Part shown: positions 12,650 through 33,797 of the stretch, one piece after another
How positions within the stretch are numbered: position 1 is the first letter of the stretch
How the letters are laid out: each line of letters starts with the position of its first letter
Source of the DNA: Kofleriaceae bacterium
Lineage (GTDB): Bacteria > Myxococcota_A > Polyangia > Haliangiales > Haliangiaceae
Length of the DNA stretch: 64,000 nt
Assembly: GCA_041495365.1 (NCBI GenBank)
Contig: JBGQCL010000007.1
Location: 2,547 to 66,546 of the forward strand
Direction: 5' to 3'
Notes under the pieces: model-generated
What the model saw: only the letters and a program-made list of their open reading frames with translations
Databases searched by the model: none
Told to the model about the DNA's origin: nothing
Made by a program: the position numbers and the translations under genes

Positions 12650-12699
12650 GACCCCCAGGGCAAGCCCCGGCGCGGGGCAAAGCCCTCCGTGGGATCGAC
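12650..12699 (-). repeat. Partial copy (F) of the TCGATCCCACGG.GGGCTTTGCC hairpin repeat family, reverse orientation
   Basis: The minus strand reads GTCGATCCCACGGAGGGCTTTGCCCCGCGCCGGGGCTTGCCCTGGGGGTC. Its first 24 nt differ from copies E1/E2 at one position. Confidence 0.6.
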
Positions 12700-12752
12700 C
12701 GATCCGTTCTCGCAGGTCGCGCGTATCTCGGCACACAGCCAGGGAGGGCCAC

Positions 12753-13673
12753 ATGGCCACACGACTCTTGGTGGTGCTCGCGTCGACGCCTGCCGCGTTG
12801 ATCGGATGCCACTCCACCGATGATGGTTTGCCTACTCGTCCACCGACCTCTGTCACCATGGTCTCGTCGGCCGGCTTCGAATCGCCGACCGACGCCGTCG
12901 CGAGCCCGGATGGCCGCACCTTCTACTTCGCCGCGTGGGACCTGGACAAGCAGCCCACGCTGTTCCAGGTCTCGTCGGACCCGGGCAGCGCGCCGCGCGC
13001 GCTCGCGGCCGGCGATCCGCTGGAGGCGCCGCTCGGCCTGGTGCTGTCGTGCGACGGCAACACGCTGTACGTCGCCGACATGGGCGGCGATGTGGGCGCG
13101 CTCCTCGTGGTCCCGACCGCGGGCGGGCCGGCCGCCGCGCTCGAGGCCACCGGGATGACCCGGCCCGGCGGCCTCGCGATGGGGCCGGACTGCAAGTCGC
13201 TGTTCGCGACCGGCCGGCTCGACGACGGCACGCCGGCGCTGTTCCAGGTGCCGATCGGCGGCGGTGTCGCTCGCGTCGTGTACCAGGGCGCGCCGCTGGT
13301 GTCGCCGACCGGACTGCACATCGACAGCCAGAGCGTCGCATGGGTGATGGACCACCTCGCCCAGGGCGCGCAAGGCGAGGGCGTGCTGTTCTCGATCCCG
13401 TCCGACGGCAGCAAGGCGACCGAGGTGATCTCGAGCCTGCGGATGGGCACGCCCGGCGGCGTGTCGCTCACCGCAGGGGGCGGCACCGCGGTCATGCCGA
13501 CCCGCGACGAGGACGGCAAGGCGCAGCTGACCTCGGTCGACATCGCCACCCGCGCCGTCACCCAGTTTCCCACCCCCGACCTGGCGGACCCGGCCGGCCT
13601 GCGCACCGCGCGCAAGGCGGGCGTGTTCGTCGTCGTCGATGCCGAAGCCGGCCGGATCTACCGCGCAGAATGA
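12753..13673 (+). CDS. Lipoprotein, probable beta-propeller repeat protein
   Basis: AGGGAGGG RBS, then ATG at 12753. Lipobox LIGC. Repeated ...P.GL..D..G..L[FY]V.D-like units suggest NHL/YncE-type blades (weak call). Confidence 0.55.
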   Translation: MATRLLVVLASTPAALIGCHSTDDGLPTRPPTSVTMVSSAGFESPTDAVASPDGRTFYFAAWDLDKQPTLFQVSSDPGSAPRALAAGDPLEAPLGLVLSCDGNTLYVADMGGDVGALLVVPTAGGPAAALEATGMTRPGGLAMGPDCKSLFATGRLDDGTPALFQVPIGGGVARVVYQGAPLVSPTGLHIDSQSVAWVMDHLAQGAQGEGVLFSIPSDGSKATEVISSLRMGTPGGVSLTAGGGTAVMPTRDEDGKAQLTSVDIATRAVTQFPTPDLADPAGLRTARKAGVFVVVDAEAGRIYRAE

Positions 13674-30916: not shown

Positions 30917-31956
30917 CGGTTCGCAACCTCGCCATCGGCCTGGTGCTGTGCGCGGTCGCCGCGTGCGCCGGGGTGCTCGGCCTGTCCCGCTCCGGGACGC
31001 GCTCGTTCCCGCACCGCAGCCACGTGATCAGCGGCGTGTCGTGCACGCGGTGCCACACCGGGCTCGATGCCAGCTCGGCCGAGCTCCACCTGCCCGACGA
31101 CGCCAGCTGCACGGCAGCGGGCTGCCACGCCAGGCCGCACGACACCAGGCCGTGCCTGACCTGCCACGTCTCGCCCACCGCGATCGCACAGCTCGCCGAG
31201 GCCCGCGACCACCTCAAGTTCGATCACCGCCGCCACATCGACGGCACCAAGGGCAACTGCATGCGCTGCCACACCGGCGTCGCCGACGGTGACGACCACA
31301 TGCGGCCGGCGATGGCGACCTGCTTCGCGTGCCACGCCAGCGACGCCCAGCGCGATGCCCGCAAGTGCGACGCCTGCCACAAGAACCTCGCCGACGAGGG
31401 CACGCTGCCGCAATCCCACCTCGCGCACGACGGCGACTGGATGCGCGAGCACGGCACGCGCGCGGCGTCGTCGGGCGATGTCTGCCAGAGCTGCCACAAG
31501 GCGTCGTACTGCGCGGAGTGCCATGGCAAGACCACGGCGGGCCTGCCGGCGACCCAGCGGTTCGCCGATCCGTTCGCCGCGAGCGTCCACCGCGCCGGGT
31601 TCGAGGCGCGCCACAGCCTCGAGGCCCGGTCGTCGCCGGGCAGCTGCACCACGTGCCACAGCCCGGAGCGCTGCGTCGCCTGCCACACCACGCGCGGCGT
31701 CGCCGGGGGAACGACCGGCAGCCCGCACCCGCCGGGCTGGGTCGGGGTGACCGCCGGCCTCAACCTGCACAGCCGCGAAGCCCGCCGCGATCCGGCGGCG
31801 TGCGCCAGCTGCCACGGCGACGCCGGCGAGACCCTGTGCGTGCAGTGCCACGCGGTCGGCGGCGTCGGCGGTAACCCGCACCCGCCCGGCTGGTCGAGCC
31901 GGCAGCCGATGTCGGCGCTGCCGTGCCGGATGTGTCACCCCGTGGGGTCGCGATGA
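30913..31956 (+). CDS. Multihaem c-type cytochrome lipoprotein (12 CXXCH + 1 CX4CH)
   Basis: Lipobox VAAC. Haem motifs counted directly. ATGA overlaps on both sides. Confidence 0.85.
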   Translation: MTVRNLAIGLVLCAVAACAGVLGLSRSGTRSFPHRSHVISGVSCTRCHTGLDASSAELHLPDDASCTAAGCHARPHDTRPCLTCHVSPTAIAQLAEARDHLKFDHRRHIDGTKGNCMRCHTGVADGDDHMRPAMATCFACHASDAQRDARKCDACHKNLADEGTLPQSHLAHDGDWMREHGTRAASSGDVCQSCHKASYCAECHGKTTAGLPATQRFADPFAASVHRAGFEARHSLEARSSPGSCTTCHSPERCVACHTTRGVAGGTTGSPHPPGWVGVTAGLNLHSREARRDPAACASCHGDAGETLCVQCHAVGGVGGNPHPPGWSSRQPMSALPCRMCHPVGSR

Positions 31957-33797
31957 AGCGCATCACCATTCCCCGGGTCGATCCCACGGGGGGCTTTGCC
32001 GCCCGCCCCGCCGGCAAAGCCGGCAGGGTCCCCACCCCCCATCTCGCTGCGCTCGATCCCACGGGGGGCTTTGCCGCCCGCCCCGCCGGCAAAGCCGGCA
32101 GGGTCCCCACCCCCCATCTCGCTTCGCTCGCTGCGTGCGCACTCGCGCTGGCCGGCGTCTCGCTCGCCGCCGGCCTGGTCGCGTGCTCCGGCGCCGAGCG
32201 CCATCCCACGCCGCAGAAGGTCCCGCTGACCTGGCGCGAGGTGCGCGACAGCGCCGGCCACACCGCGCACGTCGTCAAGCGCGGCGTGCCGTGCCGCGAC
32301 TGCCACGGCGACGACGGCTTCCAGCCGCCGCCGCTCGAGGTGTGCAGCAAGTGCCACGCCGCGGTCCGCGCGCCGCTCCACCCGGCCGATCCGCTGAACA
32401 AGGTCCGGACGCCCGGGTGCCAGGACTGCCACGGCTTCGGCGCCAAGCTCGACGTGACCCCGACCCACTGCATGCGCTGCCACACCGAGCCGCAGGGCCG
32501 CCATGCTGCGGTCGGCGCGCACAGCAAGCAGAGCTGCCTCGACTGCCACCGCGCCCACGGCGCGCCGACCCTCGACGTCAAGCCGTGCCAGAGCTGCCAC
32601 GCCAGCGAGGCCAACCACCACGCCGGCGCGCGCAGCTGCCTGGACTGCCACCAGATGCACGAGGCCGACGCGGTCGCCGACCAGGGCTGCGCGACCTGCC
32701 ATGCCCGGCAGAAGGGCAAGATCAAGGTCGACGACCACGCGATCACCGCCGGCCACGCCACGTGCACCGGCTGCCACGCGCCGCACCAGTTCGACAAGGC
32801 CCAGACCGTTGCGTGCGCTGCCTGCCACACCAAGCAGCACACGCTCGCCCCGGCCAAGCACGCGGGCTGCACCACCTGCCACGCCCCGCACAAGGGCTCC
32901 GAGCCCAAGCCGTGCACCAGCTGCCACGCCAGGTCGGTCAGTCATCCGCCGGATGGCAAGCGCGGCCCCACCGCGGCGTGCGACGGCTGCCACCCGCCGC
33001 ACACGCTCGCCGCGGGCCAGATCGCGGTCGCGTGCGCGACGTGCCACGACAAGCCGCACCACGCGACCGCGCAGTGCCTCGACTGCCACGCGCCGCACGC
33101 CGCCAAGCCCAAGCTCGACCCGGCGCTGTGCGCCAGGTGCCACGCCCGCGAGTCCGGCTCGTCGGCGGGCAGCGGCCACGCGGCGTGCACGCAGTGCCAC
33201 GCCAGCGCGGCGCACGAGCCGGGCAAGCCACCGCCGGCGTGCGCGAGCTGCCACGCGCCCAAGGCCAGGCAGCTGCGCAAGGGCCACGACACCTGCGCGA
33301 GCTGCCACACCGCGGGACCGCACCAGCCGAAGACCCCGCCGGCGGCGTGCGCGACGTGCCACGCCGCCGAGGCCAAGACCGCCCCGACCGGCCACGCCCG
33401 GTGCGCGAGCTGCCACGAGCCCCACAGCGGCGTGCGCCGCCCCGACAAGACCTGCCAGAGCTGTCACGCCGACAAGGCGGGCCAGGGCCACGGCAAGCGG
33501 GTCGACTGCGCGACCTGCCACCGCCCGCACGGCCCGGGTGGAACGCCCACGCCCCCGGCGTGCACCTCGTGCCACGCCGCCGAGCAGCGGACCGGCCTGC
33601 ACCGGGTCGCCCAGCACGGCACCTGCAACGACTGCCACGGCGCGCACGAGCCGCACCCCGCCGACGATCGCGCGACCTGCCTGCGCTGCCACACGGCGCA
33701 GGTCAAGCACGAGCCCAAGGCGGCGACCTGTGGTTCCTGCCACCCGTTCAGCAGCGGTCCGCACGCCACCACCGCGCCGGCGAGCCGCGGCAAGTGA
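31953..33797 (+). CDS. Giant multihaem c-type cytochrome lipoprotein (27 CXXCH in 614 aa)
   Basis: 27 CXXCH motifs counted, quasi-periodic every ~18-25 aa, often as C..CH.PH. Lipobox LVAC is preceded by two in-frame repeat-element copies. Confidence 0.85.
   Translation: MKRITIPRVDPTGGFAARPAGKAGRVPTPHLAALDPTGGFAARPAGKAGRVPTPHLASLAACALALAGVSLAAGLVACSGAERHPTPQKVPLTWREVRDSAGHTAHVVKRGVPCRDCHGDDGFQPPPLEVCSKCHAAVRAPLHPADPLNKVRTPGCQDCHGFGAKLDVTPTHCMRCHTEPQGRHAAVGAHSKQSCLDCHRAHGAPTLDVKPCQSCHASEANHHAGARSCLDCHQMHEADAVADQGCATCHARQKGKIKVDDHAITAGHATCTGCHAPHQFDKAQTVACAACHTKQHTLAPAKHAGCTTCHAPHKGSEPKPCTSCHARSVSHPPDGKRGPTAACDGCHPPHTLAAGQIAVACATCHDKPHHATAQCLDCHAPHAAKPKLDPALCARCHARESGSSAGSGHAACTQCHASAAHEPGKPPPACASCHAPKARQLRKGHDTCASCHTAGPHQPKTPPAACATCHAAEAKTAPTGHARCASCHEPHSGVRRPDKTCQSCHADKAGQGHGKRVDCATCHRPHGPGGTPTPPACTSCHAAEQRTGLHRVAQHGTCNDCHGAHEPHPADDRATCLRCHTAQVKHEPKAATCGSCHPFSSGPHATTAPASRGK
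31978..32052 (+). repeat. Hairpin repeat family copy E1 (75 nt)
   Basis: TCGATCCCACGGGGGGCTTTGCCGCCCGCCCCGCCGGCAAAGCCGGCAGGGTCCCCACCCCCCATCTCGCTGCGC. 10-bp stem GGCTTTGCCG/CGGCAAAGCC. Confidence 0.9.
32053..32127 (+). repeat. Hairpin repeat family copy E2 (75 nt, tandem to E1, one mismatch)
   Basis: Same sequence as E1 except G>T near the 3' end. Confidence 0.9.

Follow-up and report, generated by a model that had tools for sequence, protein, structure and literature searches.

The 64,000-nt stretch of Kofleriaceae DNA analysed here (the window) carries seven GC-rich hairpin repeats, named A, B, C, D, E1, E2, and F, some of them inside the genes of a cco operon and of a multihaem cytochrome cluster. 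These repeats are very probably non-autonomous mobile DNA elements of soil Kofleriaceae that behave like the Rickettsia palindromic elements (RPEs). Their units are 39–117 nt long, occur in high copy, and contain no transposase coding sequence. The source genome is a metagenome-assembled genome (MAG) of 12.67 Mb with 71% GC in 876 contigs (G000). The repeats fall into three small hairpin families. A genome-wide profile search with nhmmer, using one iteration on G000, resolved two that do not overlap: the DE family (D, E1, E2, and F) had 215 matches on 160 contigs, and the AB family (A and B) had 163 matches on 110 contigs. The separate C family, a 72-nt unit with GTGAC ends, had approximately 10 copies. 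Hundreds of copies were 90–100% identical, and DE and AB together formed by far the largest dispersed repeat cluster of G000 in a k-mer census.

A preliminary description of the window had located all seven stretches correctly. D, E1, and E2 proved to be exact 75-nt units; F, which it had listed as partial, is the degenerate 5' part of a DE unit; and the common tail that it had seen in A and B corresponds to the conserved 3' half and tail of one family. [quoted passage not shown] The seven stretches are, however, not a single family but belong to three with different ends (TCGA for AB and DE, and GTGAC for C). Copy C is a real insertion but a member of the separate 72-nt family. The reported concentration in the cco operon was mild: with 335 loci in 12.67 Mb, the 64 kb should hold 1.7, and approximately five were present (Poisson P ~0.03).

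Nearly all of the 138 full DE copies with flanks consisted of TCGA, 71 nt, and a second TCGA followed by unrelated flank, so that an insertion lengthens its site by exactly 75 nt (25 codons), and the flanks had no preference outside TCGA. The consensus was TCGATCCCACGGGGGGCTCTGCCCCCCGCCCCGCCGGCGGAGCCGTCGGGGTCCCCACCCCCCGTCTCGCT(N)CGC. Units of 75 nt (89 copies), 39 nt (30), and 78 nt (15) prevailed, and 163 of 186 measured units were multiples of three; among the odd-sized derivatives, this held for 29 of 52, against one-third expected (p=7e-4). The 39-nt form is an internal deletion between runs of six C and retains one perfect 9-bp hairpin. The 84-nt AB and 72-nt C units are likewise multiples of three. 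The 75-nt DE consensus contains zero stop codons across all six frames. Single units made up 180 of 197 DE loci, with arrays of up to three units at others; tandem copies such as E1 and E2 are the expected outcome when a unit inserts into the TCGA of a copy already in place.

Insertion was evident from orthologous sites in a sister MAG with flanks 89–98% identical to those of G000. Thirteen sites filled in the sister were empty in G000, and the cleanest of the empty sites (L022, L025, and L058) had a single TCGA where the filled site had two. At least five sites were filled in both genomes, with copies differing at 1–5 of 75 nt and flanks 89–96% identical. Judged from these comparisons, the elements are insertions with recent movement; insertion at TCGA was shown to be site-specific, with repeated activity before and after the species split. 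The exact DE core was almost confined to Kofleriaceae soil MAGs. The DE family was abundant, with near-identical copies, in G000 and G017 alone, and its copies in G003 and G004 were diverged. G003, G004, and G014 also carried AB, as did, at a greater distance, another family of the order.

The placement of the elements in genes was evaluated from the codon bias of the 240-nt flanks on each side of a locus, trained on long open reading frames (ORFs) of G000; this test is insensitive, calling fewer than half of random sites, and was applied alike to every set. One open coding frame spanned 73 of 154 internal DE loci (47%), compared with 1840 of 4000 random TCGA sites (46%; Fisher p=0.74) and 44% of random positions. 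AB loci were spanned in 15 of 116 cases (13%; p=8e-14 vs. random TCGA) and were mostly intergenic. Pfam domains continued across the insert in all eight host ORFs tested: a nonribosomal peptide synthetase (NRPS) AMP-binding domain, ManC nucleotidyl transferase (NTP_transferase), LCM methyltransferase, ABC-F (ABC_tran), prolyl oligopeptidase (Peptidase_S9_N), Pyr_redox, a glyoxalase-fold dioxygenase, and MscS with a cNMP-binding domain. By domain continuity, the DE host ORFs are taken to encode genuine proteins. At gene 3' ends, the ORF read through the DE element in 17 cases and stopped before it in five. The toleration of the repeat in frame, described earlier as unusual, is the dominant habit of DE genome-wide and no oddity of the cco operon.

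In G000 genes, TCGA lies in the codon phase xTC|GAx in 85% of cases, and two insert peptides therefore dominate the predicted translations, the antisense RSETGGGDPDGSAGGAGGRAPRGI (52 loci) and the sense DPTGGSAPRPAGGAVGVPTPRLA (16 loci). An example of a predicted insert-encoded peptide in host proteins is ...ERSETGGGDPDGSAGGAGGRAPRGID.... Residence in at least two reading frames, as had been proposed from the window, was borne out: D is in frame +1, the rarer phase (SIPRGALPP...), E is in frame +2 (DPTGGFAAR...), and C is a third case.

Elements in genes were mostly antisense to their hosts. The antisense-to-sense ratio of DE in genes was 55:18 by the flank test (p=2e-5) and 95:43 by gene calls from a home-made codon-bias caller; for AB, the corresponding ratios were 15:0 and 40:3. 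Within 300 nt of a gene, the ratios were 45:25 for DE and 84:31 for AB. A replication-strand cause of this bias was not supported, as element strand was not linked to contig GC skew (27+18 vs. 24+22), a weak proxy for replication direction given the weak skew (mean absolute value 0.018). The idea that antisense copies form weaker mRNA hairpins was wrong, since the RNA of the bottom strand has the more stable fold (−40.5 kcal/mol, compared with −34.6). From these two results, we infer that the bias may reflect selection on the encoded peptide or on transcription rather than replication direction.

In the window, the copper ATPase CcoI contains both C and D. CcoI orthologues of G005 and G011 lack the two inserts and end in SSLRSRAFRGEP or ...KETR directly before the stop codon, and D inserts 25 residues three to four codons before this native stop. 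C adds 24 residues, predicted as PAGIPSGQGGGGPLPPARSIALGH, between GVTATVRGH and RIVVGAP, and was found only in the window's protein among 56 homologues (absent in 55 of 56). D is predicted to be translated as SIPRGALPPAPPAEPSGSPPPVSLR. The closest CcoI homologue, the Joint Genome Institute (JGI) metagenome protein P0002 with 95% identity, has a D-derived tail with a four-codon deletion. A different nine-residue insert (RARSNAPGH) was present in homologue P0012 at the columns of insert C, and this beta-hairpin turn of CcoI appears, in the alignment, to tolerate insertions repeatedly.

CcoI was the one host structure modelled, using AlphaFold2 with 57 homologues. Residues 585–606 of C had a predicted local distance difference test (pLDDT) score below 50 and lay between strands 577–582 and 609–614, at a beta-hairpin turn of the otherwise confident nucleotide-binding domain; a solved CopB domain has no counterpart of this insert. 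D lay in a predicted disordered tail after the last membrane helix, also with pLDDT below 50. The segments adjoining C and D scored 88–95, and within the cytoplasmic and C-terminal part of the protein, which was modelled well, confidence was low only in these two inserts. In this model, the inserts are predicted to sit at a fold-compatible loop or terminus of CcoI, the only host checked. The end of the ccoI ORF after D remains in an ATGA overlap with ccoS.

E1 and E2 add 2 x 25 residues to the signal peptide of the multihaem cytochrome lipoprotein, after MKRITIPR and before the hydrophobic core and lipobox, and would thereby lengthen its n-region by 50 residues. The orthologous cytochromes of G004 and G003 lack E1 and E2 and have ordinary lipoprotein signal peptides of 19–27 residues. 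In G005, the signal-peptide region of the cytochrome orthologue (L006, G005:C26, ~3840–4080) contains a different repeated insert, built around the palindrome GCCGGCTTTGCGCGCAAAGCCGGC; this spot has apparently been hit independently by a related hairpin motif. ATGA overlaps, with stop and start codons combined, couple ccoI to ccoS (27245–27248) and the upstream cytochrome gene to the gene bearing E1 and E2 (31953–31956), and the ends of element-bearing ORFs therefore still lie within translationally coupled junctions.

Hairpin structure was best supported in the AB family. Its units have three hairpins, one on the 5' side, one in the centre around GGC-AAA-GCC, and one on the 3' side (CCGCGCG-N6-CGCGCGG). 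Pairing in the central stem is kept although the sequence is hypervariable, with four pairs showing 18–34 double changes each. The central hairpin had 105 double-change cells, compared with 37 ± 4 in shuffles, none of 500 reaching 105. The covariation was almost wholly Watson–Crick with nearly no G–U intermediates, and sliding the partners abolished the signal. This pattern is more in keeping with a constrained DNA hairpin, a structure open to both strands, than with a constrained RNA. The central stem, noted earlier in copy A as different but perfect, is thus the place where selection on the hairpin, or its maintenance, is strongly supported. Copy A has a 5' hairpin with an extra insert, the perfect central hairpin ATCGCCCGGC-AAA-GCCGGGCGAT, the family's 3' hairpin, and the tail CCCTGCACCTG..., with a DNA fold z-score of −3.5; the score of copy B was −0.1. 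Neither A nor B was retained as a terminator or sigma-70 promoter, as there were zero consensus matches.

The consensus fold z-scores were −5.0 for the 84-nt AB unit, −2.6 for the 39-nt DE unit, and −1.6 for the 75-nt DE unit. The preliminary description had read a compensatory change between D and E in a long DE stem (GGCTYTGCC with GGCRRAGCC) as evidence of selection. This stem is present as sequence but is not the predicted minimum-energy fold, local hairpins being preferred with z only −1.4 to −1.6, and its three variable pairs are the loops of two better-predicted local hairpins. Among 84 distinct 75-nt copies, pair 19–40 was CG in 32, TG in 22, TA in 16, and CA in 12 (Fisher p=0.17), and pair 18–41 was broken in 20. 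The long DE stem was thus rejected for lack of significant covariation and minimum-energy support. Towards the DE ends, only the internal arms ACGGGGGGC and GCCCCCCGT pair with each other, at 4 and 10 nt from the two TCGA.

The AB family occurs in two forms. The 84-nt form ends in ...GGCTCG before TCGA and is often found in 84-nt tandem arrays; the long form comprises 31 copies, including A and B, with the tail CCCTGCACCTGCGGGnCCTGTGCTCG. In at least 10 of the 31 long-form copies, host flank was directly duplicated on both sides over 22 to >66 bp, the upper value being the limit of the inspected window for flank duplication. The duplications often end in TCGA and often include the last codons and stop of a gene. 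Copy A, together with 56 nt of unrelated extra sequence, is flanked by a perfect 25-bp duplication of the ccoG start, the upstream copy of which opens a short ORF of repeat sequence. In the relative G005, ccoP and ccoG abut (TAG|ATG) without the insert. The flank duplications could be long variable target duplications made at insertion or could result from later unequal recombination, as some loci are arrays of alternating flank and element (X-E-X-E).

DE inserts at the tetranucleotide TCGA to give TCGA + 71 nt + TCGA; within a gene, this would add a Gly/Pro/Ser-rich 25-residue peptide with the frame unbroken, because TCGA is nearly always in codon phase xTC|GAx. We propose that insertions are retained where the added peptide is a disordered loop or tail and that the mobilizing enzyme acts in trans. 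That the AB central hairpin is perfect but variable in sequence suggests that the enzyme recognizes a DNA hairpin rather than terminal inverted repeats. Two kinds of enzyme are about equally likely, one that acts on single strands and recognizes a hairpin, and a DDE transposase whose staggered cut is specific to TCGA.

The first of these enzymes belongs to an alternative that we consider unlikely overall, in which the repeats are extragenic palindromes of the REP or bacterial interspersed mosaic element (BIME) type, spread as single-stranded DNA hairpins by a REP-associated tyrosine transposase (RAYT, Y1 HUH) or an IS200/IS605-type enzyme and inserted 3' of TCGA without true target duplication. 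It would account for the hairpin-centred design, the perfectly paired AB stem that varies almost only by Watson–Crick changes, the lack of terminal inverted repeats, and the identity of the tetranucleotide at the left flank and right end. Y1_Tnp genes also exist in the genus, and IS200/RAYT-like Y1_Tnp ORFs of 250–350 aa gave 1–29 matches in 27 of 31 genomes of the order. However, DE is not extragenic, the lone Y1_Tnp gene of G000 has no adjacent elements, the presence of Y1_Tnp and of the elements does not track across the 31 genomes, and element strand does not follow contig GC skew, a weak proxy. Y1_Tnp was rejected as the mobilizer, having neither linkage nor co-distribution with the elements.

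Equally doubtful as a full account is that the repeats are classical MITEs, which would have arisen from an insertion sequence (IS) by deletion and be moved in trans by a DDE transposase that cuts TCGA with a stagger and leaves a 4-bp or 2-bp target duplication. Small size, high copy, the precise TCGA duplication between filled and empty sites, and nested or tandem units within the TCGA of an earlier copy (E1/E2 and arrays of up to three) are as this account predicts. Its difficulties are the tips without terminal inverted repeats, the hypervariable paired AB stem, which is unexpected for transposase binding sites, and the absence of 5' and 3' ends bracketing a transposase-sized insert among those found in G000.

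Far less probable is growth by slippage or recombination of minisatellites resembling mycobacterial interspersed repetitive units (MIRUs) in operon spacers with small coupled ORFs. Although A and B occupy spacers within one operon and share the orientation of its genes, tandem arrays occur (E1/E2 and the 84-nt AB arrays), and internal deletions between CCCCCC runs are seen, most loci are single units at unrelated sites, copies in or near genes are mostly antisense, and the clean filled and empty orthologous TCGA sites show insertion events, which largely refutes this account. Local gene duplication, chance similarity in GC-rich sequence, or MAG assembly artefacts can be dismissed despite the contig ends in repeats and one copy running into an evidently artefactual poly-G tract, given hundreds of 90–100% identical copies on 110–160 contigs, insertions shared at orthologous sites with an independently assembled sister MAG, the D-derived tail of P0002, and the AB fold z-score.

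Several points weigh against reading the repeats as RPE-like, non-autonomous mobile elements. The source genome is a MAG in 876 contigs, with 58 contig ends within these repeats. The elements were shown to be non-autonomous within the G000 assembly, in which no autonomous copy or partner gene was found. DE 5' and 3' ends lying 100–6000 nt apart in G000 were separate copies with no transposase-sized insert bracketed, genes bracketed by two elements were only ordinary metabolic genes, and a parent IS with matching ends was not found in this fragmented MAG. The sole Y1_Tnp gene of G000 has no elements on its contig, and Y1_Tnp was present in all 18 genus genomes searched, with or without elements, while DE was present in few. 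Terminal inverted repeats were not found at the DE tips (TCCCAC... and ...GCTGCGC), and the TCGA on both sides may reflect target duplication, of 4 bp or of 2 bp, or one target copy together with an end of the element. By the home-made gene caller, 64% of DE matches were in genes against a called coding fraction of 77%, and a slight gene depletion of DE is therefore possible. The translation of the inserts is a prediction from sequence.

A broader reading, which we hold with slightly less than even confidence, is that the elements are adapted to life in coding sequence. A large gene-dense genome would absorb hundreds of insertions without detectable gene avoidance because the size classes are multiples of three (39, 72, 75, 78, and 84 nt), the six DE frames are open, and the target lies at a codon boundary; the elements would then keep supplying proteins with new loops, tails, and signal-peptide extensions. 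As the more speculative strand of this reading, the long AB form would insert with a 22 to >66-bp flank duplication that regenerates the start or end of a gene, as at ccoG, unlike cut-and-paste transposition.

The coordinates of the repeats and neighbouring genes are listed in Table 1.

Table 1. Repeat copies, flank duplications, and genes in the window, with the gene map drawn from Pfam matches; long-form AB loci are given by contig of G000.
Feature	Position	Strand	Description
Copy A	21726..21860	+	AB family long form, between ccoP and ccoG
Copy B	23810..23904	+	AB long form, central hairpin decayed; immediately 3' of the fixH stop codon, upstream of the DsbD_2 gene
Copy C	26391..26462	-	One 72-nt unit of a separate family bounded by GTGAC, inside ccoI
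Copy D	27147..27221	+	75-nt DE unit, TCGA to TCGA, near the ccoI 3' end
Copies E1+E2	31978..32127	+	Tandem 75-nt DE units in a multihaem cytochrome lipoprotein gene
Copy F	12650..12699	-	Degenerate DE unit, only the first 30-50 nt left
25-bp direct duplication, left copy	21700..21724	+	ccoG ribosome-binding site, ATG, and four codons
25-bp direct duplication, right copy	21889..21913	+	Functional ccoG start
ccoNO	18564-20756		Pfam gene map
ccoP	21007-21672		Pfam gene map
ccoG	21900-23363		Pfam gene map
fixH	23360-23809		Pfam gene map
DsbD_2 gene	23941-24639		Pfam gene map
ccoI	24636-27248		Pfam gene map; copper ATPase, contains copies C and D
ccoS	starts 27245		ATGA overlap with ccoI
Multihaem cytochrome gene run, last member	31953-33797		Contains E1 and E2
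AB long-form loci with flank duplication	contigs C1, C2, C32, C38, C68, C312, C394		G000

The k-mer census of G000 also indicated two or three more dispersed families with 16–27 copies each (contigs C361, C77, C134, and C53; C127, C562, C103, and C215). One of them is approximately 100 nt long and starts with CCGAGCGAAGCCCGACGAGGCGCGCC..., and another is GTCCGCGCAGGACGGGTGGTGATTCGGCGGGCGCGG.... At C83:30228 of G000 (minus-strand count), a DE 5' end runs into approximately 60 G and then C-rich low-complexity sequence, and this poly-G tract is probably an assembly artefact at a repeat.

An Rfam search of window positions 11000–34000 gave zero matches at E up to 1, and a search of a literature library for these sequences and for myxobacterial in-frame repeats found nothing relevant. 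By sequence and host, the elements thus appear unrelated to anything found in Rfam or the literature. The nearest parallel is in Rickettsia. RPE-1 to RPE-10 (Ogata et al. 2000, 2002, via PMC10969869) are hairpin repeats of ~100–150 bp, many of them in frame in Rickettsia protein genes; for R. conorii, PMC10969869 cites 44 insertions. The literature has treated selfish DNA within proteins as almost specific to Rickettsia, together with a few other genomes that are reduced (PMC10969869). Like RPEs, the elements described here are dispersed hairpin-forming repeats of several families per genome without their own transposase, and many copies are in frame in unrelated protein genes as fold-compatible extra segments. 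They differ in size (39–84 nt), in number (~380 matches in G000), and in host, which is a free-living soil myxobacterium with a 12.7-Mb genome of 71% GC rather than a reduced intracellular genome. Also unlike RPEs, they have a 4-nt palindromic target (TCGA), size classes that are all multiples of three, and six open frames, and DE shows no measurable gene avoidance. The likeness is one of behaviour, and sequence homology to RPE families is not expected.

REPs are by definition extragenic and 20–40 nt long, and RAYT genes are typically flanked by their REPs. The present elements share with REPs and BIMEs the short GC-rich imperfect palindromes, high copy, and partial clustering, and the AB stem keeps structure over sequence; unlike the REP/RAYT system, they are largely in genes and linkage to a Y1 gene was not found. 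Intragenic prokaryotic MITEs include ERIC, Coxiella QMITE1, and Anabaena MITEs; these have terminal inverted repeats and are mostly intergenic, with in-frame cases being exceptional (PMC10969869, PMC5896051). The elements resemble them in being small and non-autonomous, with target duplication and in-frame fusion to host ORFs, but in-frame residence is the rule for DE and the tips are not inverted repeats. MIRUs, reportedly described by Supply et al. in 1997, are intergenic units of 40–100 bp oriented with genes at ~40 loci. Like MIRUs, the elements can stand in tandem in operon spacers, and A and B occupy cco gene spacers; unlike them, they are mostly single, mostly antisense, and inside genes. 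What is particular here is the scale, the large genome of a free-living host, the TCGA rule, the design of 3n length with six open frames, and the lack of gene avoidance.

The repeats break short-read assemblies and can mislead the annotation of gene starts and ends, as for ccoG, ccoI, and the multihaem cytochrome. Covariation makes the AB hairpin a handle for finding the mobilizing enzyme, and the set of rules is simple and testable (TCGA target, 3n length, and zero stops in any frame). As sister species have shared and species-specific insertions, gain, loss, and decay can be dated. In a lineage that is mined for natural products, the inserts would add low-complexity loops of 13–28 residues to enzymes, transporters, and NRPS modules, and the elements represent a large-scale case of selfish DNA inside proteins in a big, free-living, high-GC soil predator.

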